From a bacterium (GTDB taxonomy: Bacteria; UBA10199; 2-02-FULL-50-16; JAJFLM01), in the NCBI GenBank assembly GCA_965216315.1, contig CBDCFN010000016.1:1088001-1152000 (forward strand): a stretch of DNA of 64,000 bases, read 5' to 3'. Made by a program: the position numbers and the translations under genes. Of this stretch, positions 4,300 through 55,233 are shown piece after piece. Each line of letters begins with the position of its first letter. The first letter of the stretch is position 1. The notes beneath the pieces were generated by a model. The model saw only the letters and a list, made by a program, of their open reading frames with translations, searched no databases and was not told the DNA's origin.

Positions 4300-4326
4300 T
4301 TTTCGCCAATCATCTTCGATAGTTGT
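4300..4326 (-). promoter_or_regulatory. Recurrent sigma28-like element, copy 1 (ACAAC-N15-GCGAAAA)
   Basis: Minus strand reads ACAAC tatcgaagatgattg GCGAAAA, 7 nt before the kinase ATG. Confidence 0.65.
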
Positions 4327-4372
4327 GTAATTTTTCAGATAGGAACGAAGGCCGCTAAGTCCCAATAAACAC

Positions 4373-4399
4373 GCAACAAATTGGCTCAAGAACCGAAGG
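4373..4399 (+). promoter_or_regulatory. Recurrent sigma28-like element, copy 2 (GCAAC-N15-CCGAAGG)
   Basis: GCAAC aaattggctcaagaa CCGAAGG upstream of the MBL gene. Confidence 0.65.
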
Positions 4400-4434
4400 T
4401 TCAGCTGGGGCGTAGGCTTTGGAGGGAGATAGGA

Positions 4435-6273
4435 GTGAGCCTGGCAGTATCTCAGCTCGGTTTTTCGTCGAGTTTTGTCGGGATGGGTGCAATCTGCGCA
4501 TCTTTGCCGGCGCGCCCGATTAATCTCGGTCGAGTGCCAGCCCTCGATCACTTCATATCCCAGCCCCCCTCTAACGACCAAATTCGACCTAGTTGGAGCA
4601 GCCAACGTTCTACGGGTTCCCGGCATATTCTGGCCGCCGCACCGACGCGGGGTGGCGTGTCAACCGCGACAACCGTGGGTCCCGGCGGGCTCCGTGGCAG
4701 TGGCGGAGGTGGTCCCATTCAGCCAGGACACGTCTTTAAGCTGCCGAGAGGCGGCATGATTGTTTATACCTCTGCAGGGTGGCTTCAGATTGGTGTGCCC
4801 ATGTGGACCAACAAAGATGCGCGTTGGCTCTACGATCTAGCGGATGGCAGTCAGGCGAGTCCGGAGCAAATTCCTCACATCATGCCCACAATCTATATCT
4901 TTGATCTCGATTATGTGCCTGCAACGGACGGGCTTATTCCTGCTGATTTTCTGCAGTATATGAATTTTGTTACGCGAACCGCGCATAACCCGAAAGGAAT
5001 TACCTTTGAAATGATCGCGCCGGATAATGCGACGGCACGTCGGCTGGAAGACTATCTCAACTTAGTTTTCTTAGGCCCCGATGATCCTGATTTGTCCGAG
5101 CGCGTTCGCCAAGAGTATCCTCCGGGCGCGACCGGAGTGCCTGATTTGCTGGCTGAGATGCATCAGGGATTTCCGGCGGCAGCTCCTGACGTATTGCGCC
5201 GGATACACGCTATGGACGCAAACAATGGTTTCGCCACCGGTCAGGTGACTGTGCGCAAGATTGGTTCTCAACTCTATGAGGTGCAGGATGGGACTGATAT
5301 CACTCAGGTGGATCTGGCGCAGGCTCCGATCCGCGGAGTGAACTTAGCTCAAAGCCTTCCCTCATGGGAATCGCCCGCCCATGAAGATGTCTGGAATGGC
5401 GTGGTGAAACAACAGCGTCCAGGCATTTGGCCGATAGGGACGGGCCATGGGTTTACTGCGGATAAAGAAACCAGCGGATTTATTATTTTTAATGGGGGCC
5501 GTGCCTTATTGGTGGATCCACCCTCAAATACAGATGAATTTCTGGTGACCAACCAAATCCCGCTGGCCATGGTGCATGGTGCACTGCTGACGCACGGTCA
5601 TACGGACCATTATGGCAATGCGATTCCCAAGCTGATTTCAATGTTGCCGAGTCTTAAGCTCTACACGACGCCGACTATCTATGACATGTTGCAGGAGCAG
5701 TATGCGTTATCATTAGGCGCCAACTTTTCAGGCGGGCTGGGTCGCTGGACATTCGATCCGATAGCGCCGCAGGAGTTTAAACAGATTATTGGCATGCATT
5801 TTCGGCCCGAGTATACTTTTCATAGCATTCCGACTTTAGGTTTCGATATTTATCGTCGCCCCGTGCAGGATCGCGGTGAGCGTATCGTCATGTTTACAGG
5901 CGATACAAACGCCGATCATGAGCGCATTTTCGATCACACGCAGACGGCTAAGGATGGAACGCCCCCCCTGATGAGCTATGAGCGCGCTCAAAATATTATC
6001 CGCCACGTCGATGGAGTGCTAATGCCCCCCCGGGGTGCACGACCGCCTGTTGTCCTGATCGATAACGGGATTGAGCCCTTACACACGCCCCCGGCGGCGA
6101 CGCAAAAGCTTCTTGTCGAGGCGATTCAGCGTGGTATCGATGTCTCCCGGATACGGGTCTATCATATTGACAGTAAGGAGGCCCGTCGTCATGGCTTGCC
6201 GGAATGGCTGGAAGGGTGGCGCGGCTTTATCGACCTTTCTCAGTATTTTCAGAGGTTTAGAAGCAGCCCCTGA
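4435..6273 (+). CDS. Metallo-beta-lactamase-fold hydrolase, possible cyclic-nucleotide phosphodiesterase
   Basis: THGHTDH (HxHxDH), FHSIPT, GDT and PLHT motifs. LPRGG..T..G..Q.G.P and GHGF....TSGFII....LLVDPP segments recall an MBL family often fused to cNMP-binding domains (recalled, not searched). Start at GTG 4435 after GGAG; the low-complexity N-terminal extension is ~100 aa. Confidence 0.75.
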   Translation: MSLAVSQLGFSSSFVGMGAICASLPARPINLGRVPALDHFISQPPSNDQIRPSWSSQRSTGSRHILAAAPTRGGVSTATTVGPGGLRGSGGGGPIQPGHVFKLPRGGMIVYTSAGWLQIGVPMWTNKDARWLYDLADGSQASPEQIPHIMPTIYIFDLDYVPATDGLIPADFLQYMNFVTRTAHNPKGITFEMIAPDNATARRLEDYLNLVFLGPDDPDLSERVRQEYPPGATGVPDLLAEMHQGFPAAAPDVLRRIHAMDANNGFATGQVTVRKIGSQLYEVQDGTDITQVDLAQAPIRGVNLAQSLPSWESPAHEDVWNGVVKQQRPGIWPIGTGHGFTADKETSGFIIFNGGRALLVDPPSNTDEFLVTNQIPLAMVHGALLTHGHTDHYGNAIPKLISMLPSLKLYTTPTIYDMLQEQYALSLGANFSGGLGRWTFDPIAPQEFKQIIGMHFRPEYTFHSIPTLGFDIYRRPVQDRGERIVMFTGDTNADHERIFDHTQTAKDGTPPLMSYERAQNIIRHVDGVLMPPRGARPPVVLIDNGIEPLHTPPAATQKLLVEAIQRGIDVSRIRVYHIDSKEARRHGLPEWLEGWRGFIDLSQYFQRFRSSP

Positions 6274-6292: not shown

Positions 6293-6319
6293 ACAACAAT
6301 TTTGCCCCCCGGCCGAAGA
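6293..6319 (+). promoter_or_regulatory. Recurrent sigma28-like element, copy 3 (ACAAC-N15-CCGAAGA)
   Basis: ACAAC aattttgccccccgg CCGAAGA, 15 nt before ATG 6335. Confidence 0.68.
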
Positions 6320-6334: not shown

Positions 6335-9300
6335 ATGTTAGGACTCAACGCACAATATAGCCTCACCCAGGCGGGTGTGATGGCCGCTGTTTCTACGGCG
6401 GGTCTACGCCATATCTATGGGATAGCCGGGACGCTTGAGAATAACCTGCGCCTTAATATCCCGATGGAGAGTATTGCCGAAACGTTGGCCCCGCAAGTGG
6501 CTCAGCTTGAATGGGATCAGAAGGGTAAACAGCCGCAGCTCATACACCAAAATCGCATGCTCGAGCGTATTGTCGCCGGCACAGTCTATCCCGATGCCGA
6601 CGGTAGAAAAACCGACGCGCATGTCGTTTTGGGATCCATTTACCATGCGATTGAGCGGATCAATCCGCAGCTCTATCAGGAACTGTCCGGTTTTGCGGGC
6701 AAACTCACTTTGCCGCCGCCATCGATGTCATCTCGACGGAGGACGACAGGACATTATTCAAGCGCCGCGCCACCGGCTGCGACTGTCGTGCCGAAACATC
6801 GTGAAGGCCAAATTGAATGCCTGCATTGTCAGAGTTGGAATCCCGTTAGTAAGAGTTTCTGCGGTGACTGCGGAGAAGACATTTCGGATGATTCTCAATA
6901 TGTGCCGCGGGCGCAAAACATGCGCGGAACAATCTTGTTTACAGACTTTCAAGGATTTACCGATATGAGTCAGTCAATGCCGGCAGAAGTATTGTTCGGG
7001 TGGCTCAATAGACAGTTCAATCTATTGGGAGCCGAGATCATGCGGCAAGGGGGATGGTTCGTTAAAAACATCGGCGATGCGATCATGGTGGTCTTTAATC
7101 AACACGAAGATCATGCCCGGCGTGGAGTCAGTACAGCGGTTCGCATGTTGCAGATTCTTGAGCAGGTCAACCCGCAGCTCAAGGGCATGGGCCTTCCGGC
7201 CTTGCAAATGAGGATTGGCGTGCACACAGGGAATATTGCAGTTGGCTATCTCGGTGGGCCTGGTTCAAAACGAGCGGATGCGATAGGCCGTGCCGTTAAT
7301 TTGGCTTCACGGCTGGAGAGTTTCAAATTGGAAAAGGGAGCTCGAACCATAAATGTTCCTGACGGAAACCGCGTCCTTGTCTCCGGTGCGACCCTGTCAG
7401 AACTAGCCGGAGGCTTTGAACATAGCTTCATTGATAAAGTAGCTTTCAAGGGAGTTGAGCAGCCGGTTGAAGTTTATCACATTCAAGGTGAGTTGCCGGG
7501 GGCCAGTGTCGCCGACCGCTATGCAGGTTCCCAAAGCCAGTTTCGGGGGCGTCGGCGAGAAATGGATCAATTGCAAGCGACCTTTGTTCAAGCGATGCAG
7601 GGACAGCCTCAGTTGGCACTTATCTCCGGCGAGGCGGGCCAGGGAAAGAGTCGACTCGCGCTTGAATTCTTGAATTCAATGAAGGGGCCGCGGGAACGTC
7701 ATATCAAAGTCATAGCCGCACGTGGGGTTGATAGGGATTATCATCCTCCCTATGCCTTGATGAGCGATGCCCTGACGCACTTGGCCGGTATCGAAGCCGA
7801 TGATGAGTTGGAAGAGATTGAGGTCAAAATTCGGAGTCTGGTTTGGTTGTCAAAAGGTCTTGGAGCTGAAGAGCAAGAACAGATGGCGCAGTTGCTGGGA
7901 CGCTTGATGGGGATTCCCTTTCGAACGGAGTTTTCCCCGCAGGAACGGCTGAAGCGCGAGACGATAGAAATGCGCCAAAGAGTCTTCGATAATATTGAAT
8001 CAATGGCTTCAGACCAAAATGTCTTGCGTATGGCAATTCATCGCGCTGTCATTCAATTCTTTCAAGAACATTCCCGCTATTTTTCCCTAATACTTTCTCT
8101 GGAAGATGTGCATTGGTCCGACCAGGAATCATTGGAGCTGTTGCACGAAGTATTCGCATCGCTTGAAGACCGACCGGTAATGGTTGTGGGGACCATGAGG
8201 CCCGAATTTGATACGGGACCCGGTTTTCAGCTCGAAGATATTTTTGCAGGGGATTATAAGGCCGAGCCGATACAGCTCCGTGAGTTATCGATGACGGACA
8301 TGCGCTCCATTGTACAAGACATACTTGGTGAAAGCTCTCAAACGGATCCGGAAGTGGTTAATTACGTCATCTGGCAAGCGGCCGGTAATGTTTTTTTACT
8401 GCATGAAATGGCCCAGGCGGTTAAGGATGGTTGGTTGCAACGCGGAGAGACACCTGAAGAGTGGCGTTTGGTGGGTGCGCATGATGAGCGTCGCACCGTC
8501 GGTGCCGATAATTTTTTACAGACGCGCCTCGAACGATTATCTCCGGCCGAACGCAGTGTCGTTGACTATGCGGCGGTAATTTCCGATGCCTTTGATTTAC
8601 AGTTAATACAAGAATTGGGGATCCCCAATGCGGGCGTTCATTTAGGGCAACTGGTTCAAAAACAGATCCTTCATCAAGACCGACAAGGTAAGTACCGCTT
8701 TCGCCATGATATGATGCGTGCAAAGGCCTATGCGATGATGAGTCATGAAACGCGCCGTGACCTGCATCGCGACATGGCGGAGTTGCTGGTTGAGCATGAA
8801 GTAGAGGACAAAGCTCTTATAGCGTATCATTTGGATAAGGGAGAACAGACGGTAGCGGCGGCCCGCTATTATTTGGATGGCGCCGAACAAGCGCAAGAAC
8901 GCGCACTCTACCGGCAGGCGCTTAGATATTACGATCGTGTCTTTGCCTTGGGTCGCGAAGAAGATAATCAATTGGCTTTGCGGGGTTTGTTGGGGGGGAA
9001 TGAAGTCGCTCTGGATATGCGCGATACCGAATCGGCCTATGCGCGTATCGAATTGGCAGCAGATCTCTTGCAGTCAGGTATTGAACGTGAAGTCAGATCT
9101 CAGTATTTTTATCGCCTCGCCCATACGTTGCAAGTTGACCGTAATGATGAAATCAAAGCGAATTTGTTCGCTGCTGAGCAGGCCGTAAAAAACGCACTAA
9201 AGCGATACGATGACGTCGAAGTATCACCTATGAAAGCGCAATTGTTGGCGACGTTGGGACGGATTTACGCGGAACGCAGGGACTTTCAGGTGGGGCAAAC

Positions 9301-10804
9301 CTATATTCGTCAGGCGATTGTTACGGCCAAAGCGGCTCATGATGATGATGTGGTTGCGGAAACCTATCTCCACCAGATGTATATGGACCTGCAGTATGGA
9401 GACTATGGGTCGGTTATCAAGTTAGGCAATGATGTCGATGCCTTGCTCAAATCCCCTAAGTTTGCCAAGCGCCGGATTGCCCGAAACGTGAATGTAGGAG
9501 GCGCGCACATCAATCTGGGTAATTACGAGGAGGCGCTGCGCATTTATCAAGTGACGGAGACGCTGTCGCGTGAAAAATTTGCAGGGACCTACCTTCCCAA
9601 TATCGTTCCTAACGTCGGGACCTGTTTGCGTCTCCTGGGTCGATCGGAATTGGCGCTCCAACATCTCGATCGTGCGATTGAACTCTTTAGCCACCAACCC
9701 AACGCCTTTATGGCGGGGGTGACGCAACTCTATCGTGCGCTGACTCTCCTCGACCTTAAGCGCTATGACGAGGCCGACGAGGCGGCGACCCGAGTCTATG
9801 CCGTTTCACAGGCGGGGAATGAGCCCGATCCAAAATTAGAGGCGATGGCGCACATGGCTCATGCCCAGATCCAATTAGCTCAAGATCAACTGCAAGCGGC
9901 CGAACAAAGTAGCGCTGAAGCCTATCGATTGTTGTTGGCATCTGAGTGGCATATTGAGGAGTTTGATTTAGAGATTGCGCTGACACATGCGCGCATCCTG
10001 TGGAAGCAGGGTAAGAGCGAGGAGGCGTGGCAGGTCCTTCATGGAACCGAGCAGGTCAAGGGGGCCAGGCAGGAGCTTGTGCTACGGGCAGAGAAACTCG
10101 ACTTGGCGTTGCAGGCGAATTTCTATCATCGGAATCGGGTCAATGCGGCGATCGTTCAGATGTGGGAAGCTATTCAGTTAGAGAGGTTGCGAAGTAATAG
10201 TAACGCTAGCCTGGGGGCTATCGTGCAGGAAGCGCTTACGCGAGTTCAGCCGGGCATGTTGACGCCTGATATTGAGGCTTATGCGCAGCAGGAGCCAGGG
10301 AAGCTGTCGGCGCTGAGAGAAGTCGGTAATCATCAGCTGGTTGGGGTTCTACTTAACTCACCATATATAGTCACGCTGGGAACAGTACTATCAAGGAAAT
10401 TAGAAGAGATGGGGGCTGCAGAAACGATGGAAGCCGGACTTTCATTGACCCGTGCCGTGTGGCGCCCTTCGTTTAATGAAGATGGCAGGCCCATTGTTTA
10501 TTGGGATTTTGATCTTGATTCCGACAATGTGCAGATCTTAAGTGCTTTAAACACCATTGGAAATGTTAGGCGTCACATTCATGCGACGTATGAAGGAGAT
10601 GTGAGCTACAGTGATGGAGTCATTAAAGTTACCTTCAACTTAACGCAAGAAACGGAGACCTTCACGACGGACCAATTTGGAGCTATCGAGTTACTCATTG
10701 GCGCGACCACCGATGGGCGCTCCGTTTTGGCGCTGCGCGCTGAAAAGGGTGCCTTTACAGCGCGACCGGATATCTTACTCCAGGACTTAGCCGAAGGTCT
10801 CTAA
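6335..10804 (+). CDS. Class III adenylate/guanylate cyclase - AAA/STAND-like ATPase - TPR protein with zinc ribbon
   Basis: CLHC..CGDC zinc ribbon; cyclase motifs TILFTDFQGFT, VKNIGDAIM, RIGVHTG, AVNLASRLE; Walker A GEAGQGKS and Walker B LSLEDVHW; TPR-like helices. Extra unassigned N- and C-terminal regions. Confidence 0.9.
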   Translation: MLGLNAQYSLTQAGVMAAVSTAGLRHIYGIAGTLENNLRLNIPMESIAETLAPQVAQLEWDQKGKQPQLIHQNRMLERIVAGTVYPDADGRKTDAHVVLGSIYHAIERINPQLYQELSGFAGKLTLPPPSMSSRRRTTGHYSSAAPPAATVVPKHREGQIECLHCQSWNPVSKSFCGDCGEDISDDSQYVPRAQNMRGTILFTDFQGFTDMSQSMPAEVLFGWLNRQFNLLGAEIMRQGGWFVKNIGDAIMVVFNQHEDHARRGVSTAVRMLQILEQVNPQLKGMGLPALQMRIGVHTGNIAVGYLGGPGSKRADAIGRAVNLASRLESFKLEKGARTINVPDGNRVLVSGATLSELAGGFEHSFIDKVAFKGVEQPVEVYHIQGELPGASVADRYAGSQSQFRGRRREMDQLQATFVQAMQGQPQLALISGEAGQGKSRLALEFLNSMKGPRERHIKVIAARGVDRDYHPPYALMSDALTHLAGIEADDELEEIEVKIRSLVWLSKGLGAEEQEQMAQLLGRLMGIPFRTEFSPQERLKRETIEMRQRVFDNIESMASDQNVLRMAIHRAVIQFFQEHSRYFSLILSLEDVHWSDQESLELLHEVFASLEDRPVMVVGTMRPEFDTGPGFQLEDIFAGDYKAEPIQLRELSMTDMRSIVQDILGESSQTDPEVVNYVIWQAAGNVFLLHEMAQAVKDGWLQRGETPEEWRLVGAHDERRTVGADNFLQTRLERLSPAERSVVDYAAVISDAFDLQLIQELGIPNAGVHLGQLVQKQILHQDRQGKYRFRHDMMRAKAYAMMSHETRRDLHRDMAELLVEHEVEDKALIAYHLDKGEQTVAAARYYLDGAEQAQERALYRQALRYYDRVFALGREEDNQLALRGLLGGNEVALDMRDTESAYARIELAADLLQSGIEREVRSQYFYRLAHTLQVDRNDEIKANLFAAEQAVKNALKRYDDVEVSPMKAQLLATLGRIYAERRDFQVGQTYIRQAIVTAKAAHDDDVVAETYLHQMYMDLQYGDYGSVIKLGNDVDALLKSPKFAKRRIARNVNVGGAHINLGNYEEALRIYQVTETLSREKFAGTYLPNIVPNVGTCLRLLGRSELALQHLDRAIELFSHQPNAFMAGVTQLYRALTLLDLKRYDEADEAATRVYAVSQAGNEPDPKLEAMAHMAHAQIQLAQDQLQAAEQSSAEAYRLLLASEWHIEEFDLEIALTHARILWKQGKSEEAWQVLHGTEQVKGARQELVLRAEKLDLALQANFYHRNRVNAAIVQMWEAIQLERLRSNSNASLGAIVQEALTRVQPGMLTPDIEAYAQQEPGKLSALREVGNHQLVGVLLNSPYIVTLGTVLSRKLEEMGAAETMEAGLSLTRAVWRPSFNEDGRPIVYWDFDLDSDNVQILSALNTIGNVRRHIHATYEGDVSYSDGVIKVTFNLTQETETFTTDQFGAIELLIGATTDGRSVLALRAEKGAFTARPDILLQDLAEGL

Positions 10805-15567: not shown

Positions 15568-15594
15568 GCAACTTCTATTATGAGGGCCCGATGA
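15568..15594 (+). promoter_or_regulatory. Recurrent sigma28-like element, copy 4 (GCAAC-N15-CCGATGA)
   Basis: GCAAC ttctattatgagggc CCGATGA, 6 nt before ATG 15601. Confidence 0.72.
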
Positions 15595-15600: not shown

Positions 15601-17229
15601 ATGGGGTTCGGGTTTGCACTTACATCGACGCATACTCCGACGGCGGCACTAGCTGCCGCGGGTGTAACTTTCAACCGAGCGACTTTCTTTGATGATGTGC
15701 TCCAAACTCAAGGGCTACGCCAAGTCTACCCCATTCGCGACCCTGCAGTTATTACGGAAGCCTTTGCTGCCTATCAAGGGAGTGACGCAGATCTCTTCAG
15801 TTTAGCGGGGACCGAACAAAGTCTCGATGTTGACAGCGGCACTGTTCCACTAACCTATTTGGATAGCACGGCTTCGACCAAGATGATTCCCCACGTGGAG
15901 GCGGCCGAAGCCAATGCCAATCGACATTACGCCAACAGCCATTCGGTTGCTCACAATCCTGCCATGATCTCTACTATCGATTTTAAGAATGCTCATCGCC
16001 GCGCACTTGATTTTGTGGGGGCTAATCCAACCACGCATGTTGCAGTTTTTGATGGCTCTGGTGCAACAGGTCCACTCAATCGAGTGGCAAGAAACCTTTT
16101 TGTCCATGGACGTGATGAAAAAAGGAACACAGTTCTCTTTACGGGCAAAGAGCATCATGCCAACCAGTTACCTTGGCAACGTTATGCCGGTAAGCTGCAT
16201 TGTCATGGTATTCCCGTAGATGGCGTTACAGGTTGTGTTGATATACCTGCCTATCGTCAGTTGCTTCAAGATCATAGTGAACGACTTCGTTTGGTCGCGG
16301 TCAATGGAGTGTCTAATGTGACCGGTGTGGTAGAGCCGGAATTGGAGCTGATGGCTCATTTGGCCCATGAGGTGGGTGCTCTGTTGTTGGTAGATTATGC
16401 TCAGGGCTTGGCTCATAGGGCGATCAGTATGCAAGAGCTGGGTATCGATTTTCTGGTTGCCTCAGGACATAAGACCTATGCACCCGGATCACCCGGCCTT
16501 CTAGTAATGCCACGAGACAGCACACCTCAGTATCCCGACAACGTGGGCGGTGGCATTGTTGAGTCCGTCGATATTGATGATTTTCAACTAAGCAGTAAAT
16601 TGCCCGATCGGGAAGAAGCAGGAACGCCAGATATTATCGGTGGAATTAAGTTTGCGGCGGCATTGGAGGCGCTAGCTTGGGTCGGTATGGATCGAGTTTG
16701 GCAGCACGAGTTGGAATTGACAGAGCAATTGGTGTCAGGATTGATGGCAATATCAGGCGTTGAGGTTTATGGTGATACAGATTTGGCCAGAACACCGCGT
16801 GCCGGTGTAGTAACATTCAATATTGATGGTCTCCATCATGCGATTCTGAGTCAGGCCTTATCGGATTATTTTAATATTGCAACCCGGAATGAGTGCTTTT
16901 GTGCTCAGCCGTATGTGAAATCGCTCTTTCATATGACGCCGGATCAATTGCGACGATTTAAGCACCAGCTTGCAGAGGGTGATCGGAGTAAGGCTCCCGG
17001 GATGGTAAGAGCCAGCTTGGGTATTTACAATACAACCAATGACATCCATCGATTGTTGGTAGCCGTGGCATGGATTAGCGCGAATAAGGATCGTTTGGTT
17101 CAGGAATACTATGTCGATACTAATGGCAATGCCTATCGTCATGACAAATGGCGGGTTGATGCCAATAGGTACAGTTCATTACCCTCTAGCAATGGTGACT
17201 CCCTTTATTTCCCATCGGTCGACAGCTGA
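15601..17229 (+). CDS. Class V aminotransferase / cysteine desulfurase-like (SufS-type) with ~85 aa N-terminal extension
   Basis: YLDSTAS, EHHANQLPW, SNVTG, VDYAQ, SGHK (PLP Lys), EAGTP, RNECFCA, RASLGIYN. Confidence 0.9.
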   Translation: MGFGFALTSTHTPTAALAAAGVTFNRATFFDDVLQTQGLRQVYPIRDPAVITEAFAAYQGSDADLFSLAGTEQSLDVDSGTVPLTYLDSTASTKMIPHVEAAEANANRHYANSHSVAHNPAMISTIDFKNAHRRALDFVGANPTTHVAVFDGSGATGPLNRVARNLFVHGRDEKRNTVLFTGKEHHANQLPWQRYAGKLHCHGIPVDGVTGCVDIPAYRQLLQDHSERLRLVAVNGVSNVTGVVEPELELMAHLAHEVGALLLVDYAQGLAHRAISMQELGIDFLVASGHKTYAPGSPGLLVMPRDSTPQYPDNVGGGIVESVDIDDFQLSSKLPDREEAGTPDIIGGIKFAAALEALAWVGMDRVWQHELELTEQLVSGLMAISGVEVYGDTDLARTPRAGVVTFNIDGLHHAILSQALSDYFNIATRNECFCAQPYVKSLFHMTPDQLRRFKHQLAEGDRSKAPGMVRASLGIYNTTNDIHRLLVAVAWISANKDRLVQEYYVDTNGNAYRHDKWRVDANRYSSLPSSNGDSLYFPSVDS

Positions 17230-17248: not shown

Positions 17249-17275
17249 GCAACTTTTAGACCTAGCGGCCGAAAA
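17249..17275 (+). promoter_or_regulatory. Recurrent sigma28-like element, copy 5 (GCAAC-N15-CCGAAAA)
   Basis: GCAACTTT-N11-GCCGAAAA, same geometry as canonical TAAAGTTT-N11-GCCGATAA; 10 nt before ATG. Confidence 0.75.
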
Positions 17276-33167: not shown

Positions 33168-33194
33168 GTGTCGGCGGGACGAGGTGATTGTTGT
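33168..33194 (-). promoter_or_regulatory. Recurrent sigma28-like element, copy 6 (ACAAC-N15-CCGACAC)
   Basis: Minus strand ACAAC aatcacctcgtcccg CCGACAC. Confidence 0.62.
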
Positions 33195-33262: not shown

Positions 33263-33289
33263 ACAACATATAGTAAGAAGGATCGATAA
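33263..33289 (+). promoter_or_regulatory. Recurrent sigma28-like element, copy 7 (ACAAC-N15-TCGATAA)
   Basis: ACAAC atatagtaagaagga TCGATAA upstream of ORF 33340. Confidence 0.7.
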
Positions 33290-43541: not shown

Positions 43542-43570
43542 ACAACGCAAAACCCGCAAATTCTCGATAA
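43542..43570 (+). promoter_or_regulatory. Recurrent element, long-spacer copy 8 (ACAAC-N17-TCGATAA)
   Basis: ACAAC gcaaaacccgcaaattc TCGATAA upstream of lipoprotein 1. Confidence 0.6.
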
Positions 43571-43646: not shown

Positions 43647-46364
43647 ATGTCACATCGCATTAAAGCAATATTTTCTTCAATTTCACTGCTACTGGTTATT
43701 TTTGCCTTTGCGGCCTGTCAGGACGTCGCTTCGGACTCGAAGTCCGACACAGCCAGTGATGAATCGGTTGGAATCAATATTGTCGGCGAGGATGGTATCG
43801 TTATCGGAGATGCCCCGCAGAGTAATGAAAATGTTGCCGATCCGGTCCAGGCCACCGCGGTCGATCCATGCGAATGGTCCAAGGACGCGGTCACGTTTGA
43901 GGCGACCGGACCTATTTATAAGAGTAGTACCTTTCAAGGGACGCAGGATACCTCGACGACGTTGAGTTGGACGGTTAATACGAATTGTACGCCTTCAAAA
44001 TTAATTATTGAGAGTTTTGATGGGAGTAGTTCAGAATACAGTGGGGCGAAGGCTCAAAGCTGGACCAAGCAGATTCCGGCTTTGAGCCAGAGTGCCACGT
44101 TTAAGCTCGTTCTGCTTTATAAGAAAAATAATCAGAGTACTGTTGTACTGGAGAAATCCATCGAGGTGCCCGTGATCGTGATGGAAGATACCTTTGATGT
44201 CAGCGTAACGGCTTGCAATAATGAAACTTCAACAGAATCAAAATGCGAGCTAAACACCAATCTGACCCCTCAAAACGACTATAAAGATCCGAGCGATTAT
44301 CTCGTTACTTTTTCGATGACGAATGATCCTGAACTGAAACTCTGCATCCGTTCGCCTCATGCGGGAATTGAAGCTCAAGCCAGCAACTTCGATTGGAAGG
44401 GCTTATTTATTAAGCAGGCCTATGCGGAATACAATGAGTTGGCCGTCGTCAAAAAAGAATTTGTTTCTAATAAAGGGTTTGCCAATAAGACGGTTATGCA
44501 ACTGCATCCTGGATATTTCTATAATGATCCGGCGCCGTCACTTGGTACGGTGGTCGGAAAGGTCGAATGCTTTGATGAAAATAATATGACCATGAGTGCG
44601 GACGGCACGCAGTTGATCGGACAATTTGAATTTAAGGCAACGGCGAGCACGGACATCGTCTACTATGCCGAGCGCGCTGGTGTGAAATTCATGGAAGCGA
44701 CGATTCCGCTGAAGGTCAAGATTATCCATCCTTCATCCGTTCTCGACGTGAAACGGGCGATCCCCGGCGTAGGTGCCAAAAACTACGACTTGGTCTTGGA
44801 AGAAGACAGCCCGGTTCTGGAGTTCAAAGTGAAATTAAGTGACGGGGAGCACTTTGCTTTAGTTACTGATGCGACGGATAAACTCTATTCAGAATCGACC
44901 TGGACCGCGAGCAGCGCGAATATGGAAAAAATCAACGGACAGAGCAGTGCGACGCCACCGCCGGCTGCAAAGGAAGCAATATGCAAGATCGATAGCGAAG
45001 GGTCATACGGGAATAGCGACTGTAAGGACAAAGGCTATGATCAAAATTTTATCGAGAAGGTCCAAAAAGTTTTTCCGAAGCGCAAGGTTCACGTCTTTAA
45101 ATTCAATCAGCACGATCTCGAAGAGACCTATTACTACGCGCGAGCGATCGCCTTTGATACGAAGTCAGCATTTATCGGATTCGGTTATGGTGATTATCTG
45201 AGGGTCGGTGTGGTTGAAAATGAAGGTCTGCCCGCCCCTCAAATTCGTTTTGCGGCCTCAATGGGTGTCGGAACGGATTATAAGAGCGTTGATTACTTCT
45301 GCACAGATGACTTTAGAAAGAAGATCTTTGAAGGGCCGACTCAAGCATCGATAGCCGGTAAATCGAGAGGGCTTAAGTCACTGACAGTAGAGCGGACCGG
45401 TTGCAGTGCCTCCGGTAATTCTTCCGTCAACGACGTCTATGGCGAAGAGGGTGTCTTCGATTTCCATTCGACCTGCCATTATAATAGTTTGAACCCGGGT
45501 TGGACCCTGACGGCGGTTGATTTCTTGGGTAAAACCCACACGAAGACCTGTAAATATGCGGCGAGTGGTTGGCCTATCTACGTTACGCTCGAAGGAGATA
45601 TTGGCAATAACATCGGTACGGATCACGTCGCGTTTAAGGTGGACAAGCACGAGCAGGGCGGCCCGAATCCCTATCTAGCGACTAAATTCGAAGCCGTCTC
45701 AGGCCATAGCTGTACCATTACGAATGGAGGGGAACAGGATTGGACCGATCCGAGAGATTATGCGGATCATATTGCGCCCGGCATCACGAATGTCGGTTTG
45801 AATTGCTGGAAAGCGCGTCTCAAGGTCAAAATGATTGACGGGAAATGGTATTACGTTCGCTTTAGCGCGGCGACGGCCAACGATAGTCTAAAGAGCAACG
45901 GTTATGTGTGGGAGGCGACGCAGCATCAACACTGGGCGACCTCCCTCAGTGGGAAAAGCGAAAGCCAAAAGGCGCGCTTTACCCTGACGTTTCCGCCGCC
46001 GCTTAAATTTGACCTGGTTGGCCATAAAGGGACACTCCCTTGGGGAGATAAGATCACCACGTGTGGCTACCTGTCTGACGACGATCTGGCCGGATACGAC
46101 CTGCATGCCTTTGCACGGGCCTTCTATTTCGACGGCAAGCACGTGACGAAGGTGAGTTGCGGCTGCACGGGAGGATGTACGGGCCAGGGAGGTAATTTGC
46201 TCAACGTCAGCGATGCCGAGTCGTTTGCGAATGAAGACGTTGGTTTCGTATGGGCGGGTGAAAAAGACGGGGGCGGTCGTTGGGATTTTACCTGTACGGC
46301 CACCGGTGTCGCCGGACAGGAAATAAAACGAGATTTTCATTGGTCTTGTCCCAATAAGGACTAG
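43647..46364 (+). CDS. Large Cys-rich beta-rich lipoprotein, paralog 1
   Basis: MSHRIK...FAA-C lipobox, acidic linker, long blocks shared with the next genes. Confidence 0.85.
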   Translation: MSHRIKAIFSSISLLLVIFAFAACQDVASDSKSDTASDESVGINIVGEDGIVIGDAPQSNENVADPVQATAVDPCEWSKDAVTFEATGPIYKSSTFQGTQDTSTTLSWTVNTNCTPSKLIIESFDGSSSEYSGAKAQSWTKQIPALSQSATFKLVLLYKKNNQSTVVLEKSIEVPVIVMEDTFDVSVTACNNETSTESKCELNTNLTPQNDYKDPSDYLVTFSMTNDPELKLCIRSPHAGIEAQASNFDWKGLFIKQAYAEYNELAVVKKEFVSNKGFANKTVMQLHPGYFYNDPAPSLGTVVGKVECFDENNMTMSADGTQLIGQFEFKATASTDIVYYAERAGVKFMEATIPLKVKIIHPSSVLDVKRAIPGVGAKNYDLVLEEDSPVLEFKVKLSDGEHFALVTDATDKLYSESTWTASSANMEKINGQSSATPPPAAKEAICKIDSEGSYGNSDCKDKGYDQNFIEKVQKVFPKRKVHVFKFNQHDLEETYYYARAIAFDTKSAFIGFGYGDYLRVGVVENEGLPAPQIRFAASMGVGTDYKSVDYFCTDDFRKKIFEGPTQASIAGKSRGLKSLTVERTGCSASGNSSVNDVYGEEGVFDFHSTCHYNSLNPGWTLTAVDFLGKTHTKTCKYAASGWPIYVTLEGDIGNNIGTDHVAFKVDKHEQGGPNPYLATKFEAVSGHSCTITNGGEQDWTDPRDYADHIAPGITNVGLNCWKARLKVKMIDGKWYYVRFSAATANDSLKSNGYVWEATQHQHWATSLSGKSESQKARFTLTFPPPLKFDLVGHKGTLPWGDKITTCGYLSDDDLAGYDLHAFARAFYFDGKHVTKVSCGCTGGCTGQGGNLLNVSDAESFANEDVGFVWAGEKDGGGRWDFTCTATGVAGQEIKRDFHWSCPNKD
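44691..44752 (+). repeat. Near-identical intragenic repeat (second copy 47734-47795)
   Basis: ATGGAAGCGACGATTCCGCTGAAGGTCAAGATTATCCATCCTTC(A/G)TCCGTTCTCGACGTGAA, one mismatch in 62 nt between paralogs 1 and 2. Confidence 0.85.
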
Positions 46365-49401: not shown

Positions 49402-49430
49402 GCAACTCTACACATTCAACAAACCGATAA
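49402..49430 (+). promoter_or_regulatory. Recurrent element, long-spacer copy 9 (GCAAC-N17-CCGATAA)
   Basis: GCAAC tctacacattcaacaaa CCGATAA. Confidence 0.68.
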
Positions 49431-49538: not shown

Positions 49539-52268
49539 ATGGCAAAGCTTACTTGTCAGGGCCTCGCCCTGTTGTGTGTTTCCCTTACCTTGATTCTCAC
49601 TTCCTGCCTTAAACCCGCGAATGACAATGATAATAATAAGCCCATTATAAGCGAATCAGCGGACGGTGATCTTGGGGTCGAGGTGAGCGGTCTTCCCGAG
49701 TCGGGTGCGATTGATGTCGATCCTGTGGTTGGAGATGAAGGTGAGGCGAGTAGCCCTCAGGCGACGGTTGTTGAACCTCCCTGCGAATGGCCCGCCGAAG
49801 AGATTTCCTTTGCCGGAAACGCCCCGGTTTACAAGAGTAATGCGGTCGATGAAACCGCTCAGGATCTCTCCACGCAGCTGAGTTGGAACATCACCACCGG
49901 ATGCGCTCCGGATAAAGTTATTATTACAACCCCTCATGGGACGTCCGAGTATGCGGGGGCGCGTGCGCAGAGCTGGAGTAAGGATATCCCCAAACTTGAG
50001 GAGACGACGAGCTATACGCTGGTTATCATTCACAAGAACGAAGTCGTGCATGAAGAATCAGTTGAGATTCCCTTGGTTGTTATGGAGGATAACTTTCAAG
50101 TTTCAGTTACGGCTGTCAACAAGGTAACCGGCAGTCAACATATGAGTTGGACGCCCCAGCAAAATTACCAAGATCCACGCACTTATAAAGTCAGCTATTC
50201 TTTTAGCGCCGAGCTCGATAAGGTCTGTATCCGTTCGCCTCACGGGACGGCGCCGTCGCGCTTTCAGCAGAATAGAAATCTTCGGCCGCAACAACGTCAA
50301 TTGGATCGTCATGATTTCGAGCTCCAGGAAGCGATTATTCAGAATCGCCTGAGCCGCTGGATAGGCGATGCTCTGATTGGCGTTGCTCATGCCGCTCCGC
50401 TCCAAGTTGATCCTCTCTATGCGGCGGTCGTTTGGGTCGATGGAGCGCCCAAGGCACCGACAGTATCGGGATATGAGGAGTGTTTCGGCAAGGATGACTC
50501 CGTGCTCGATGCCCAGGGAAAGAATTACGAGGGTGAGTTCGAATTTGAATTGAATGGCAGTACGGCGATTGAATCCTACGGCATGCTCAATGGCGTCAAA
50601 ATATTTGAAAAGTCAACGCCGCTCAACGTGACGATTGTTAAGCCGTCTTCCGACTTTGCAGCGAAACGCGCGATCCCCGGTGTCGGTGCCAAACACTATG
50701 ATCTCGTCGAGAATGGACTGAGCTCGGTCATCGAATTTAAAGTCGAATTTAGTGATAGCGTGCAGGCCGCGCTCGTAACCGACGTGGCAACGAAGCTGTA
50801 TTCCGAGTCGACTTGGACGGCGAGTGACACGAATATGCAAATCATCAATGGGACCCAGGCCGGTACGTTGCCGGCGGCGAAGTCTGCGGTGTGCGATATC
50901 GATCCCGATGCGGCGTCAACCTCGTCCACAATCAAACCATGCACGGACGCCGGCTTTACAGCCAACTTTATCGATAAAATAAAGACGACTTATCCTAATC
51001 GTCACATGAATGTTTTCAAATTCAATGTTCATGATCTCGCCGAAAGTTACTATTATGCCAAGGCCTCCCAGTTTAAGACCAAGTCTGCCCTGGTCGGTGT
51101 TGGCTATGAAGATTATTTGCAGCAGAGCGAAACGGAAGCGACAGAAATCCCTGAGCCGGGCATTCGCTTTACTCCCACGGCCGAGTACAGCAGTGATTAT
51201 GTTGGAGTCAATAATTTCTGTTCCAATGGTTTTAAGAATACCCTTTTTGCGGGAGCGCAATCCGCAATATTGGCCGGTGAGACGCGCGGCGTTAAATCGA
51301 TGGAAATCCGGCAGACCGGTTGCGATTCCAATCAGGGTAGCACGGATGTTCATCCCTACTATGGTGAACCCGGAGTGATCAATTTTAATTCTAAATGTTT
51401 CTATGACGGGATGAATCCAGGTTACACCGTGACGACAGAAGATCTCCTTGGGAATGAAACGAATACGACCTGCAAATTTAACGTGACGATGTGGGACATC
51501 AAACTGCAGCTGACCAGCAAAACCGATAACCTGCTAGAAGATCGCTATGGCTTTAAGCTTGAAAAAATCGAGCAACCGGGCCCGGATCCGATCAAAGAGC
51601 TTAAAGTTGTCAAAGTTGACAGCCATTGTGGTGGGGCCTTTCTGAATACGGCTGTCAATGTCGAGGATGATCGCGATTACGAGCGTACTTTTGATGTAAC
51701 GAACCAAGGGGTTGATTGTTGGAAGATTGCCGTCCAGGCAAAGACTTACGACGGTTGGAAGTATGTCACTTGGACGACGCATAGCCAGCAGGTCAAAAAT
51801 ACCGGCTACCAATGGCATTCAAAAAGCATTAGCAAAAATACCCGTGGCAATAATGAAACGGCTTTTTTCCCGCCGCGTATGCATATCGATAAGTGGCAAC
51901 GGACATCGAGTCAGTGTTGGAGCACATTTACGTATATTGGTGCTTGCAGCATAGCGTGCACTATCTGGAATGAGAAGATTGATAAGTACGAAGCCGATTA
52001 CAAGCTGAGTGGACGCCATATCGACCGTTTGGAAGTGACCTGCAATCGCGGCTCACTAAGCGGCGTGAGTGTCAGCGGAAGCGACCGAGAGCGCTTTGTG
52101 GATAAGGCTCTCAGCTATAGTTCCAATGCTAACTCGGATGTGCGTACGAAGATTAAATATGATTGTGAAGTGACGGCCACGGGGGTCGGTGATCAGCCTA
52201 AATTAACCCGGTCGTTTGCCCGGTGGGCCAAAGCTGAAGGGAATTCGTGTACGATGGGGAATCAATAA
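49539..52268 (+). CDS. Large Cys-rich lipoprotein, paralog 3
   Basis: ATG 49539 after GGAG; LTS-C lipobox; shares KRAIPGVGAK, KLYSESTWTAS and EKIEQPGPDPIK blocks. Confidence 0.85.
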   Translation: MAKLTCQGLALLCVSLTLILTSCLKPANDNDNNKPIISESADGDLGVEVSGLPESGAIDVDPVVGDEGEASSPQATVVEPPCEWPAEEISFAGNAPVYKSNAVDETAQDLSTQLSWNITTGCAPDKVIITTPHGTSEYAGARAQSWSKDIPKLEETTSYTLVIIHKNEVVHEESVEIPLVVMEDNFQVSVTAVNKVTGSQHMSWTPQQNYQDPRTYKVSYSFSAELDKVCIRSPHGTAPSRFQQNRNLRPQQRQLDRHDFELQEAIIQNRLSRWIGDALIGVAHAAPLQVDPLYAAVVWVDGAPKAPTVSGYEECFGKDDSVLDAQGKNYEGEFEFELNGSTAIESYGMLNGVKIFEKSTPLNVTIVKPSSDFAAKRAIPGVGAKHYDLVENGLSSVIEFKVEFSDSVQAALVTDVATKLYSESTWTASDTNMQIINGTQAGTLPAAKSAVCDIDPDAASTSSTIKPCTDAGFTANFIDKIKTTYPNRHMNVFKFNVHDLAESYYYAKASQFKTKSALVGVGYEDYLQQSETEATEIPEPGIRFTPTAEYSSDYVGVNNFCSNGFKNTLFAGAQSAILAGETRGVKSMEIRQTGCDSNQGSTDVHPYYGEPGVINFNSKCFYDGMNPGYTVTTEDLLGNETNTTCKFNVTMWDIKLQLTSKTDNLLEDRYGFKLEKIEQPGPDPIKELKVVKVDSHCGGAFLNTAVNVEDDRDYERTFDVTNQGVDCWKIAVQAKTYDGWKYVTWTTHSQQVKNTGYQWHSKSISKNTRGNNETAFFPPRMHIDKWQRTSSQCWSTFTYIGACSIACTIWNEKIDKYEADYKLSGRHIDRLEVTCNRGSLSGVSVSGSDRERFVDKALSYSSNANSDVRTKIKYDCEVTATGVGDQPKLTRSFARWAKAEGNSCTMGNQ

Positions 52269-52289: not shown

Positions 52290-52318
52290 GCAACTCCAGC
52301 GGACCCATTGACCGATAA
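52290..52318 (+). promoter_or_regulatory. Recurrent element, long-spacer copy 10 (GCAAC-N17-CCGATAA)
   Basis: GCAAC tccagcggacccattga CCGATAA. Confidence 0.68.
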
Positions 52319-52439
52319 GGGAATGGGTGCGAAATTTTCTACTCGTAAGTTGCATTTAACACCCGATTTGCGTCCTTGATTTCATCATAGAATATCAAAG
52401 GAGGCTATGTAATAATATTCAGGATACTCGGGAGGTTGT

Positions 52440-55190
52440 GTGACGTCGCTACGCTTTTTTATCTTATTATCCCTCATTATGGGCCTTACGGCCTGCTCCG
52501 GTGCGAAAAAATCGGAGGTAAACGATCCGGGGGTGACCGTCAGTCCGGGCGTCGATATTGTCACTCCTGATTCCACGGAAAGTGAGGAGGCGGAAGAAGA
52601 ACCTGCCATCCAACCCGATGCGCCTGCCGCGATTGACCCCGATGAATTTAAGAATGCGATGTTGGTTGCGGACCCCGCCACGGTCTATGTCGGGCAAGGA
52701 GAGGAAGTCAAAAAGACCGGTGGCTCGACGACGCTCAAATGGGGCATTGAGGGTGAATTTGATAAGATCGCCTTCGTGCGTAAGGCGGATCAATCGATTA
52801 TTTTCGAGACGACCCAGGGTTCTTCCGAGAAAGAAACCGGCCTGCTTTATGAAACGACGACGGCCGTCATGAAGGTTAAAAAACAAGGCCAGTGGTTGGA
52901 TGGTCCTGAAGTCGTGATTGAGGTGGAGAAGGTCTCTGACCTCTATCCATTGAACGTTGTTGTGACCCCCTATCCGGGCCGCCTGCCGCCGGGACAGGAT
53001 ACCCGCAAAATGGAAGCGGCTTTTATGGTCGCCAATAATTTTTACGATAAGATCTGTATCAAGGTCGGTTCCCTGAGCAAGCATCAGCCGCCGAATGGCG
53101 GCAAGTTGACGATGTCTTTGATCGGCTTTCAAGTCGTGGTACCGACGGAGCCGTTGTTAGAAGATATCACCAAGTGTTTTGACAAGCCGGCGGACCCGGA
53201 CCAGCCTTTCGTCGGTTCGGTCGAGTTTACGCCCGAGCCGCTGGACGCGGACAAGACGCAAAAAATGGTGCCGGTGCATATCTGGGGGTTTAAGGGCGAA
53301 AAGAAATACTATCAGAATGTCTCGTACGGAGTACTCAGACGGGTGCCGCCCTCGGTCGATCTGCGCGTTGCGCGCACGGTGCCGGGAGGGGACGCGGAGC
53401 TCAAAGATCTTTTTCTGACGGGCTTTACCAACGTGCTTGAAATGCACGTCGAGGCCCAATATCTGCAGGATCTCTACATTGTGACTAATGCGGCGGATAA
53501 ACTGTACAACGAGGCCTATATTCAGGCGGACCCGGTCCATCCGCCCAAGCGAAAAAACGTCAATCCTATTCTCAACGAACACTGTCAGGTCTCTTTGCAA
53601 AAACCGGGCGGCGAGCTTGGTAAAGTCACTAACGCCGGCAATCAGTGTCCCGCTGTCGTCAAGACCGTCTTGGGTCAGCGTATCAAGGGCTATGAAGGTC
53701 TATTCTCCGTGTTTAAAATCAGTAAAGGCGGGGCTGGCGGCGTGATGATGAGCCAAGGGGGTGTCAGCGGCTTGAAGGCGAATACGCAGCCGCAGCAGCA
53801 ACAAGCGGATACGCCGAGCCCGACGCAACTGGCCCTCAACGCGCAAGGGAGTCTGGCTCCGGTCAGGCTCTACGTACCGGCGACGCGTGATTTTAATACC
53901 TTTGTCATGGTCTTAGGCATTGCGGCCGACGATAAGAAGGTCGCTGAGGCGGTGCACGAGGCCCTGCCGACGCCGGACTGGGAAGAGTTGCTCTCGATCC
54001 CCGACGCCGAATGGATGGAGAAGTTTCAGAATCAGGCTCCTTTCGTCGAGTTTAACGTGCTCAACGTCGGCCGAGTCGATAAGGCCAAGGCCGAACACCT
54101 CAACCCCGACAGCTGTTCGGGTGAGCTGGAAGTGAAAACGCCGGCTAACATGAAGAATGCGGTCCGCTTCACTTTGCGTTGTACGGTTACCGGTGACAAG
54201 GAACTTGGCTGGAAGGTGACCGTTCCGACCATATTGGGTGGCGACAAGAAGCAGACGAAGATTATTCGCTATTCGATGCGTGATTGGCGTTTCAAGATCA
54301 AGCTGAAGGAAATCGTCAAACAGGACGGTGCTCCCAAGGGCTTTGATCAGATCACTTGGGAGGTCAAGGCGGATCCGCCGCCTGGAGCGATTGGCGGCGC
54401 GGGCCCGGGCCCGAATCCCTTTGAGAAGATCAGAATGGTTCCCTATCGAATCAGGGAGTACGATACCAATGACCGCTTTTGTACGGGCTGGGATGACGAG
54501 GGTTACAAATTTACCGAGGCCGGTGAGTCGCGACTCTTTACGTTTAAAAATTATGGCTTGAATTGCCATAGCTTTAAGTTGCAAGGGCGCCGCATTGGCA
54601 AGGCGGAGTGGGAGGACTTTCCCGCCAAAGAAGTGTCGAAGGAGTTGCACAAATATGTCACGGAAGGGCCGGGCTCCCTTCACAATTCGACGATAGAGGC
54701 GCGCCCGGCACCGAGCCTTACCTGGAAGGAAGAATCGGTTAATTGTGAGTGGGAAGAAGTTTGCGACGAAGATGATTGTGATAAGTATATGCATGCCTGC
54801 TGGGGGTGTTTCGGGGGGCCCTTGGCATGCGCGATCGCGTGTGGGATAGGTGTTAAAAAGCGCAACGATTGCCGGGACAACATTGAATGTCATCAGGAGC
54901 TTATCGGTGAGCGCAAGGTCAAGATTGAGGCGGAACACATCCAGACGATGAATGTTCTCGCTTTGGAGTCTCCCGACGATCACGATGATATCCAGCATGG
55001 CGGCAGTGACTACTGTGATCTGCTCAATCGAGAGCTCGACGACTATTTGGAGAAGATGGAGTATGTCAAAGACGAATTCTCTCACCCCGCGTTCGAGGAA
55101 GAGTTTGCCTGTAAGCTCTATTTGCGGGGGGCCGGCGGCCATCCCTCGGTTGAGACGGTTGTCTCGTCCGGCAAATGCACTCCAAACTAG
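52440..55190 (+). CDS. Large Cys-rich lipoprotein, divergent paralog 4
   Basis: GGAGG RBS, LTA-C lipobox; remnant shared motifs STTLKW, DKICI, RTVPG, VLE, VTNAADKLY, PGPNP, GLNC. Confidence 0.82.
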   Translation: MTSLRFFILLSLIMGLTACSGAKKSEVNDPGVTVSPGVDIVTPDSTESEEAEEEPAIQPDAPAAIDPDEFKNAMLVADPATVYVGQGEEVKKTGGSTTLKWGIEGEFDKIAFVRKADQSIIFETTQGSSEKETGLLYETTTAVMKVKKQGQWLDGPEVVIEVEKVSDLYPLNVVVTPYPGRLPPGQDTRKMEAAFMVANNFYDKICIKVGSLSKHQPPNGGKLTMSLIGFQVVVPTEPLLEDITKCFDKPADPDQPFVGSVEFTPEPLDADKTQKMVPVHIWGFKGEKKYYQNVSYGVLRRVPPSVDLRVARTVPGGDAELKDLFLTGFTNVLEMHVEAQYLQDLYIVTNAADKLYNEAYIQADPVHPPKRKNVNPILNEHCQVSLQKPGGELGKVTNAGNQCPAVVKTVLGQRIKGYEGLFSVFKISKGGAGGVMMSQGGVSGLKANTQPQQQQADTPSPTQLALNAQGSLAPVRLYVPATRDFNTFVMVLGIAADDKKVAEAVHEALPTPDWEELLSIPDAEWMEKFQNQAPFVEFNVLNVGRVDKAKAEHLNPDSCSGELEVKTPANMKNAVRFTLRCTVTGDKELGWKVTVPTILGGDKKQTKIIRYSMRDWRFKIKLKEIVKQDGAPKGFDQITWEVKADPPPGAIGGAGPGPNPFEKIRMVPYRIREYDTNDRFCTGWDDEGYKFTEAGESRLFTFKNYGLNCHSFKLQGRRIGKAEWEDFPAKEVSKELHKYVTEGPGSLHNSTIEARPAPSLTWKEESVNCEWEEVCDEDDCDKYMHACWGCFGGPLACAIACGIGVKKRNDCRDNIECHQELIGERKVKIEAEHIQTMNVLALESPDDHDDIQHGGSDYCDLLNRELDDYLEKMEYVKDEFSHPAFEEEFACKLYLRGAGGHPSVETVVSSGKCTPN

Positions 55191-55206
55191 GGGTGCCTTA
55201 TATTTA

Positions 55207-55233
55207 GCAACATATTGGCGATGAGGCCGATAA
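55207..55233 (+). promoter_or_regulatory. Recurrent sigma28-like element, copy 11 (GCAAC-N15-CCGATAA)
   Basis: GCAAC atattggcgatgag GCCGATAA: a perfect sigma28 -10 octamer. Confidence 0.78.

Follow-up and report, generated by a model that had tools for sequence, protein, structure and literature searches.

Background

In Pseudomonas syringae, HrpL, an alternative sigma factor encoded with the type III secretion system (T3SS), drives the structural genes of that system together with scattered effector genes, and its hrp box serves as an effector finder. HrpL belongs to the ECF (extracytoplasmic function) sigma factors and uses a box different from the one considered here; the system it serves includes a secretin and is directed at plant cells. 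Here we describe a bipartite element, RCAAC-N15/17-CCGATAA-like, that precedes 11 genes in a 64,000-nucleotide stretch of DNA from a bacterium of the uncultured phylum UBA10199 (positions 1,088,001 to 1,152,000 of contig CBDCFN010000016.1, assembly GCA_965216315.1; the whole stretch is hereafter called the window). Its sequence features make it, very probably, the promoter of a FliA-like sigma factor, and we favour as the probable explanation that it belongs to a distinct sigma-28 subfamily (region 4.2 helix SKSWxSRLH), once flagellar and since transferred to a non-flagellar T3SS.

The nearest classical counterpart is the sigma-28 (FliA)-FlgM regulon that governs late flagellar genes in E. coli, Salmonella and P. 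aeruginosa. As described in excerpts of PMC12784957, it agrees with the present system in the -10 box GCCGATAA, the -35/-10 geometry, the position of the transcription start (+1), the equivalents of R80 and R97, and the placement of a filament-type subunit under the sigma factor; a small candidate anti-sigma factor is modelled here against several sigma regions. It is unlike the present system in that here the -35 box is RCAAC rather than TAAAG, the helix is SKSWTSRLH rather than ESRVSQLH, flagellin and FlgM are without a match, targets number about 300, and the sigma gene lies in an injectisome-type cluster. In the FliA attack-phase regulon of Bdellovibrio bacteriovorus, a related lineage, sigma-28 has likewise been widened to a global, largely non-flagellar programme according to excerpts of PMC3627812; the Bdellovibrio box is TTAAG-N16-CCGATA and flagellar genes are included, whereas here the box is another, most genomes are without a flagellin match, and the sigma factor is tied to a T3SS. 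Chlamydia trachomatis retains sigma-28 without flagella alongside a T3SS and also has a developmental switch; its regulon is given as two genes in the portion of PMC10597470 consulted, compared with hundreds here, including a T3SS needle-like gene. Secretin-less systems of the Myxococcales (the 'long' Myxo locus, PMC3459982; the 'needleless' T3SS*, mxan_2434-2464, PMC12075869) are like ours in having an export apparatus, an ATPase and rings but no secretin. Neither account reports a needle, and the passages of them that were searched give no sigma factor or regulon, whereas a needle-like gene and a flanking TPR chaperone are conserved here; unlike those systems, this genome is without a Tad/Kil pilus ATPase. 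Stigmatella and Hyalangium proteins fall in the same sigma subfamily as ours.

Overall, the regulon resembles flagellar late and HrpL effector regulons but stands apart from the classical sigma-28 regulon, because its -35 box and helix differ and flagellin is not found. A full-text literature search, short of subscription papers and supplements and with most hits judged from their listings, returned no description of the motif, the sigma subfamily or a T3SS in UBA10199.

Results and discussion

Consensus, placement and orientation of the element

The genome measures 2.96 Mb, is 98% complete, and is approximately 90% coding by our own gene caller. It contains about 300 sites with the consensus GCAACTTT-N11-GCCGATAA; the two halves of the weight matrix read C-R-C-A-A-C-T-T-T and G-C-C-G-A-T-A-A, and 228 of 301 sites have the spacer that matches the 11-nt geometry of sigma-28. 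Both the -10 box GCCGATAA and the spacing of a sigma-28 promoter are therefore found, and an earlier reading of the window from its letters alone (the sequence-only reading) was right in proposing this layout with an altered -35, TAAAG being replaced by RCAAC. Genome-wide, RCAAC-Nx-CCGATAA occurs 36, 13 and 13 times at x = 15, 16 and 17, and 0-4 times at each other x from 8 to 26. Of 99 strict matches genome-wide, 85 lie outside called genes and 78 no more than 250 nt upstream of a same-strand gene, a placement seen in 1/11 and 1/6 of spacer controls. A weight matrix trained on these strict matches gave sites in 284 of 1718 upstream regions versus 5 in shuffles; the same threshold assigns 338 genes to the element, and a further 179 matches inside genes are probably mostly noise. 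Across 811 tandem gaps there were 150 sense and 4 antisense sites; this comparison replaced a reverse-complement control of the upstream regions, which divergent gene pairs inflate. Regulated genes are dispersed, as the earlier reading had it: 177 of 224 runs consist of one gene. The sequence upstream of spacer-17 sites showed no second motif.

These data also bear on the alternative that the element is an operator bound by a repressor or activator, or else a scar left by a mobile unit bringing in genes with their own 5' module. In its favour, the genes are dispersed singletons, and some adjacent sites have common spacer sequence after duplication. An element that is bipartite and non-palindromic, with a free 15-17 nt spacer and the strict orientation just given, that lies at a constant 6-8 nt from the start codons of leaderless genes, and that is retained before a single-copy core gene in 26/26 loci argues against this, and we regard the operator or mobile-unit explanation as very improbable.

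In the Pseudomonas sigma-28 open complex the -10 octamer spans -15 to -8 (excerpts of PMC12784957), and +1 is therefore expected seven nt past the box. At 451 sites, ATG codons reach a maximum precisely 7 nt past the -10 box (30, versus 2-6 at gaps 0-4), and in this genome 51 ATGs occur at gaps 6-8 versus 6 at gaps 1-3. A ribosome-binding motif precedes 10 of 47 genes with an ATG at the predicted +1, versus 125 of 202 with long leaders. The ATG peak at the predicted gap and the general lack of a ribosome-binding motif there are indirect evidence that transcripts may start leaderless at the predicted +1, often at the ATG itself.

Elsewhere in the genome (C16:2161700-2201400), an array of approximately 15 same-strand genes has a near-identical promoter site before each; several of these genes have a common Cys-containing N-terminal motif, unlike the usual leader described below.

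The FliA-like sigma factor

Five sigma-70-family genes were identified: RpoD, RpoH, two ECF sigma factors, and exactly one FliA/WhiG-like protein, the family predicted by the sequence-only reading. The best matches of the last are NCBIfam TIGR02479 (E 1e-38) and, among PDB entries, WhiG and FliA. In line with the change in region-4 specificity proposed there, the -35-reading Q228 of Pseudomonas is replaced by R in the region 4.2 helix, and the adjacent E and R by K and W, respectively. The helix SKSW[TV]SR[LI]H occurs in 119 of 120 near homologues, and ESRVSQ with its -35-reading Gln is absent. Equivalents of R80 and R97, which contact the -10 and extended -10 in Pseudomonas, are retained. Residue correspondence was taken from an alignment to chain 9wsf_A, with residue numbers shifted by 5, as seven residues that PMC12784957 names require. 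A non-flagellar role, also part of the earlier proposal, agrees with the lack of any flagellin match in this genome; FlgM has no match either, so that neither mark of a flagellar class 3 regulon was found.

Within the phylum, every one of 90 genomes shows motif enrichment (17-108 strict matches versus 0-10 for reversed-pattern controls), and the canonical TAAAG version remains at background in the same genomes (0-12 versus 0-12). A FliA-like sigma factor was detected in 88/90, including 63/63 high-quality genomes, and flagellin in 11/90 only. As kin are not independent, these counts describe inheritance rather than repeated tests. No variant box was found directly upstream of the flagellin genes inspected in four relatives (G053, G062, G079 and G080), and in G062 flagellin is preceded by a TTAAG-type box instead. 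Two flagellated relatives additionally possess a flagellar FliA, whose helix is of the ordinary type (ESRICQIH). In three members of one family (G081, G082 and G083), a third, divergent sigma-28-like gene lies outside flagellar and T3SS clusters, and flagellin was not found there.

Beyond the phylum, 125 of 150 distant sigma representatives have the same helix type, one cluster of which includes proteins of Stigmatella aurantiaca and Hyalangium minutum. Of 80 metagenome loci, 32 exceed 6 kb, and a T3SS core gene is present in 23 of these. The motif in these loci, which are partly redundant, has its maximum at spacer 15 (44, versus 3-14 at spacers outside 15-16), and is often located between the sigma gene and an inner-rod-like gene, with an ATG 6-7 nt beyond. 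Helix, motif and T3SS thus appear to travel together across lineages, which we regard as the best available evidence for pairing this sigma factor with this motif.

The same evidence limits the case for an ECF sigma factor or RpoH as the reader of the element. With AAC at -35 and CGA at -10, the element is also similar to ECF promoters, and the genome encodes two ECF sigma factors as well as RpoH. Close relatives of the two ECF proteins are, however, present in only 9/65 and 13/65 genomes (E <= 1e-30; this comparison covered the two ECF proteins), whereas all have the motif. Furthermore, the -10 box is the sigma-28 octamer and the motif accompanies the SKSW sigma in distant lineages, leaving this alternative with little credibility.

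The type III secretion cluster around the sigma gene

The sigma gene lies inside a non-flagellar T3SS cluster, between needle/chaperone and inner-rod/ATPase genes, and its neighbours are T3SS genes, in a conserved order, in 44 of 45 related loci. Cluster genes encode SctV, an FHA/SctD-like protein, SctJ, L, N and O, a ruler with a FliK domain, a FliG-like protein, two C-ring proteins, FliO, SctR, S and T, and SycD-like chaperones. SctV scores above the non-flagellar cut-off (806 > 692 bits) and below that for FlhA (698 < 772); with this non-flagellar SctV, the core SctJ, N, Q, R, S, T, U and V is present. The SctU/FlhB homologue is isolated at C16:805005-806090, well away from the cluster, and has a kinase gene and an FHA-GGDEF gene next to it. 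No Tad or type IV pilus ATPase and no type VI sheath were found in this genome.

A needle-like gene precedes a CdsG-like TPR gene. Its product has a helix at its end, and 10 of 13 PDB matches to its C-terminal profile are T3SS needle chains. The best of these, at E 0.00095, is a chain of 43 residues that bears the name of a needle co-chaperone and that we take to be the needle peptide. When the model of the candidate, of mean pLDDT 57, was used in a fold search, nothing matched at E <= 0.001. The gene is present in 63 of 65 genomes, and the motif lies upstream of it in 26 of 26 loci, with none antisense and spacer 17 in 23. The system thus probably does have a needle. Two SycD-like chaperones flank a motif-bearing gene, and Pfam gave nothing for the translocon or tip candidates. 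Preceding the needle candidate is a 112-aa gene, in the position of SctE, that has no meaningful PDB match, and a 151-aa motif-bearing gene gave a weak pilin match only. The regulon is likely to be coupled to the T3SS.

Several further features were observed around this system. On the flanks of the cluster (C16:341219-346869 and 372422-376496) are genes for FHA-domain proteins, for a Ser/Thr kinase and for an FHA sigma-54 activator, a hint that the sigma factor may be under control by phosphorylation. A second motif-bearing gene cluster (C16:1463790-1472488; spacer 16-17) encodes Gly/Ala-rich and Met/Gln-rich helices and offers translocator candidates; one of its genes and two genes ending the T3SS cluster have a common N-terminal peptide.

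A candidate anti-sigma factor

Directly upstream of the sigma gene, both in the phylum and in distant groups, is a small gene whose product has a disordered N-terminus; in this genome it begins 13 nt after a motif-bearing gene. The predicted complex of the sigma factor and upstream small protein of a relative (L023) scored 0.76 versus 0.02 for the best control, with at least 81% contact agreement between runs and a partner pLDDT of at least 64. The mark applied is reached by 116 of 157 solved pairs and 2 of 215 mismatched pairs. Modelled contacts are mainly in the middle region of the sigma factor, with others in its N- and C-terminal domains. The model supports binding of the small protein to the sigma factor; the pass may come from likeness to solved sigma-28/FlgM complexes. 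The candidate has no useful PDB sequence match, and its fold matches are generic helical ones (best Z 5.7). On this modelling, we consider the chances of a FlgM-like anti-sigma checkpoint to be evenly balanced.

Regulon content and N-terminal leaders

For protein analysis, the regulon was taken as 291 high-scoring genes encoding at least 100 aa. At most one charged residue in positions 2-25 is found in 118 of these 291 proteins versus 93 of 2003 others, and many contain a motif of two hydrophobic residues, Ala and a small residue near residue 15 (LAS motif). The motif also occurs in 9 of 78 genes co-transcribed behind regulon genes, which were not used in defining it, versus 27 of 1925 others. 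Spacer length separates the products: leader proteins are divided 116:2 between spacer 15 and spacers 16-17, and Sec proteins and lipoproteins 23:24.

Of 127 low-charge proteins, 120 were scanned, 7 with signal-peptide-like starts being left out, and 39 matched Pfam; the matches include kinases, cyclases, kinase-receivers, GGDEF, RelA-like proteins, patatins, a macro domain, PFK, GDH and RtcB. For each leader-bearing SufS, PFK, GDH, acetyl-CoA carboxylase (ACC)/biotin ligase, acyl-CoA synthetase, amidase and RtcB, the genome also encodes a leader-free homologue. From their sequences, we lean slightly towards the leader proteins being injected T3SS cargo. The target cell would then be a bacterium, as we infer from the need of leader enzymes for a cytoplasm and from the bacterial character of several domains. 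A viral scan found one weak locus only.

In a different explanation, the FliA-like sigma reads the motif but controls a general life-stage programme of the kind that FliA runs in the Bdellovibrio attack phase, the T3SS being only one member and the leader proteins acting in their own cytoplasm or an internal compartment. Many members are lipoproteins, regulators or without a class; kinase-receiver, GGDEF, RelA-like and sigma-70 region 4 domains would act at home; and secretin, Tad and type VI routes were not found. FliA moreover drives 92 of 140 Bdellovibrio attack-phase promoters in excerpts of PMC3627812. Nevertheless, the sigma gene sits within the T3SS cluster across lineages, and that cluster contains needle-like, ruler (FliK domain) and SycD/CdsG-type chaperone genes. 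The uncharged leader, common to extra enzyme copies and absent from housekeeping copies, is hard to explain without a targeting step. We consider a general life-stage programme unlikely, if by no means far-fetched.

Three proteins were observed in passing. A 2577-aa single-chain acetyl-CoA carboxylase that contains the ACC central domain and is fused to a biotin-protein ligase (C16:1632121-1639854) has the leader, as does the adjoining acyl-CoA synthetase. A 3854-aa leader protein (C15:370007-381571), mostly without matches, contains two acyltransferase domains and a MaoC dehydratase and weakly resembles fungal fatty acid synthase beta. A helicase fused to an RpoD-like region 4 is located under the variant promoter at C16:91474-94470.

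Assessment and proposed mechanism

Several observations weigh against a T3SS-dedicated sigma-28 subfamily. As to the sigma factor, it scores under the curated FliA/WhiG cut-off (133 < 189.6 bits), and other residues that contact the -10 in Pseudomonas differ (S72, L86, H100, R101). As to the element, the weight matrix was trained on this genome itself, gene starts were taken from our own simple gene caller, and the ATG peak is uneven in the phylum (~760 vs ~360 over 65 genomes; reversed in some, such as G018 and G019). The T3SS secretin was not found, the sole full secretin of the genome being in a type II operon, and the YscC cut-off was reached in 0/65 genomes. The needle assignment spans approximately 40 residues, with most matches at E 0.09-0.8, and the motif is present at just 3 of 9 distant needle-like genes. 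The anti-sigma complex was modelled with the pair of a relative, and the protein encoded at the matching position in this genome has diverged greatly. Sec or lipoprotein signals occur in 47 of the 291 regulon proteins, and 126 fall in neither class, so that the regulon is wider than T3SS cargo. Lastly, the strong leader is a family-level trait (15/22 in G025, 0/27 in G062 and 5/26 in G053), the N-terminal bias being weaker in other families.

On balance, we still judge a sigma-28 subfamily moved to a non-flagellar T3SS to be the probable explanation. The sigma factor would read RCAAC at -35 and GCCGATAA at -10, with RNA starting about 7 nt beyond, often at the ATG. The small protein encoded just upstream would keep it inactive until the basal body could export that protein, as for flagellar late genes. 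Once released, the sigma factor would activate the needle, translocator-like proteins and surface lipoproteins (often at spacer 16-17), along with more than 100 proteins with low-charge leaders (spacer 15). The latter products would be substrates that the T3SS delivers, at a stage of contact, into a second cell, which is probably bacterial. More tentatively still, and against our own leaning, the whole uncultured phylum could live by injecting a large set of its own extra enzymes and bacterial-type regulators, among them kinase-receivers, GGDEF and RelA-like proteins, the helicase with sigma-70 region 4 and single-chain fatty-acid enzymes, into another bacterium through a secretin-less, needle-bearing T3SS under a sigma-28/anti-sigma checkpoint.

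If true, the system would be an extant form midway from flagellum to injectisome, in which the promoter box lists the cargo and spacer length tiers the programme. The injectisome is thought to derive from the flagellum through a secretin-less stage (excerpts of PMC3459982), and regulation at that stage would be revealed by a system in which the late sigma of the flagellum, perhaps together with its checkpoint, has been kept. The box would provide a genome-wide finder of candidate substrates in a phylum of no known lifestyle, and the sigma factor a natural test of a -35 specificity change by three helix residues. Since cultured myxobacteria carry the same sigma subfamily, promoter, needle-like gene and anti-sigma factor are open to laboratory work there, with a bearing on the role of the T3SS in prey lysis.

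Promoter sites and genes of the window

All 11 sites of the sequence-only reading were located, each oriented toward its downstream gene, with spacers of 15 nt at 8 and 17 nt at 3 and matrix scores of 15.0-27.1 bits. The window contains 13 sites scoring at least 15, versus a mean of 2.4 (maximum 9) in 30 dinucleotide-block shuffles. That reading did not find the element before four housekeeping operons, and this holds: the regions upstream of nfeD, mazG and lysS all score below 0, and that of rpsT has no site of 12 or more. The downstream genes had been called orphan or accessory; we retain accessory and drop orphan, because 6 of the 11 have a Pfam domain. Open reading frame starts initially listed at 4313 (minus strand), 4381 and 6302 fall within the motif, and the likely true starts are 4292, 4435 and 6335. 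Sites and downstream genes are as follows (scores in bits).

4300..4326, minus strand: promoter site, ACAAC-N15-GCGAAAA; score 22.2; ATG 7 nt beyond, probably leaderless
1329..4292, minus strand: Ser/Thr kinase, 987 aa; uncharged LLASS leader
4373..4399, plus strand: promoter site, GCAAC-N15-CCGAAGG; score 15.5; divergent to the 4300 site
4435..6273, plus strand: metallo-beta-lactamase-fold protein; long low-charge N-terminal extension; start placed via the ribosome-binding site
6293..6319, plus strand: promoter site, ACAAC-N15-CCGAAGA; score 19.4
6335..10804, plus strand: adenylate/guanylate cyclase-AAA-TPR protein; uncharged leader
15568..15594, plus strand: promoter site, GCAAC-N15-CCGATGA; score 23.4; ATG 6 nt beyond
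15601..17229, plus strand: SufS-like cysteine desulfurase; approximately 80 additional N-terminal residues and leader
17249..17275, plus strand: promoter site, GCAAC-TTT-N11-G-CCGAAAA; score 27.1; ATG 10 nt beyond
17286..18092, plus strand: cysteine dioxygenase-like protein; leader present
33168..33194, minus strand: promoter site, ACAAC-N15-CCGACAC; score 18.7
32470..33126, minus strand: 218-aa protein; no match in Pfam and NCBIfam
33263..33289, plus strand: promoter site, ACAAC-N15-TCGATAA; score 20.5; divergent to the 33168 site
33340..35682, plus strand: 780-aa protein; VLAST leader; no family match
43542..43570, plus strand: promoter site of the spacer-17 class, ACAAC-N17-TCGATAA; score 15.0
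43647..46364, plus strand: 905-aa lipoprotein-type protein, downstream of the 43542 site
49402..49430, plus strand: promoter site of the spacer-17 class, GCAAC-N17-CCGATAA; score 23.3
49539..52268, plus strand: 909-aa lipoprotein-type protein; 36-43% identity to both upstream paralogues
52290..52318, plus strand: promoter site of the spacer-17 class, GCAAC-N17-CCGATAA; score 20.7
52440..55190, plus strand: lipoprotein-type protein of 916 aa; not matched by BLAST to any of the three upstream paralogues
55207..55233, plus strand: promoter site, GCAAC-N15-CCGATAA; perfect GCCGATAA -10 box; score 25.3
55285..56811, plus strand: 508-aa protein with C-terminal TPR, downstream of the 55207 site

A leader-bearing paralogue of the kinase at 1329..4292 begins 5 nt downstream of it and extends past the window start. 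The SufS-like desulfurase at 15601..17229 has two homologues without the leader elsewhere in the genome.

Between prfB and lysS, positions 43647-52268 hold three tandem lipoprotein-type paralogues of 905-977 aa with 36-54% identity and no Pfam match, followed by the unrelated 916-aa lipoprotein. The paralogue at 46438-49371, without a site of its own, is probably co-transcribed with the gene at 43647..46364. An Atlas search with the lipoprotein at 49539 gave only leads below 0.9. The prfB reading frame at 42406-43491 begins mid-protein, as would be expected from the programmed frameshift that prfB usually has.

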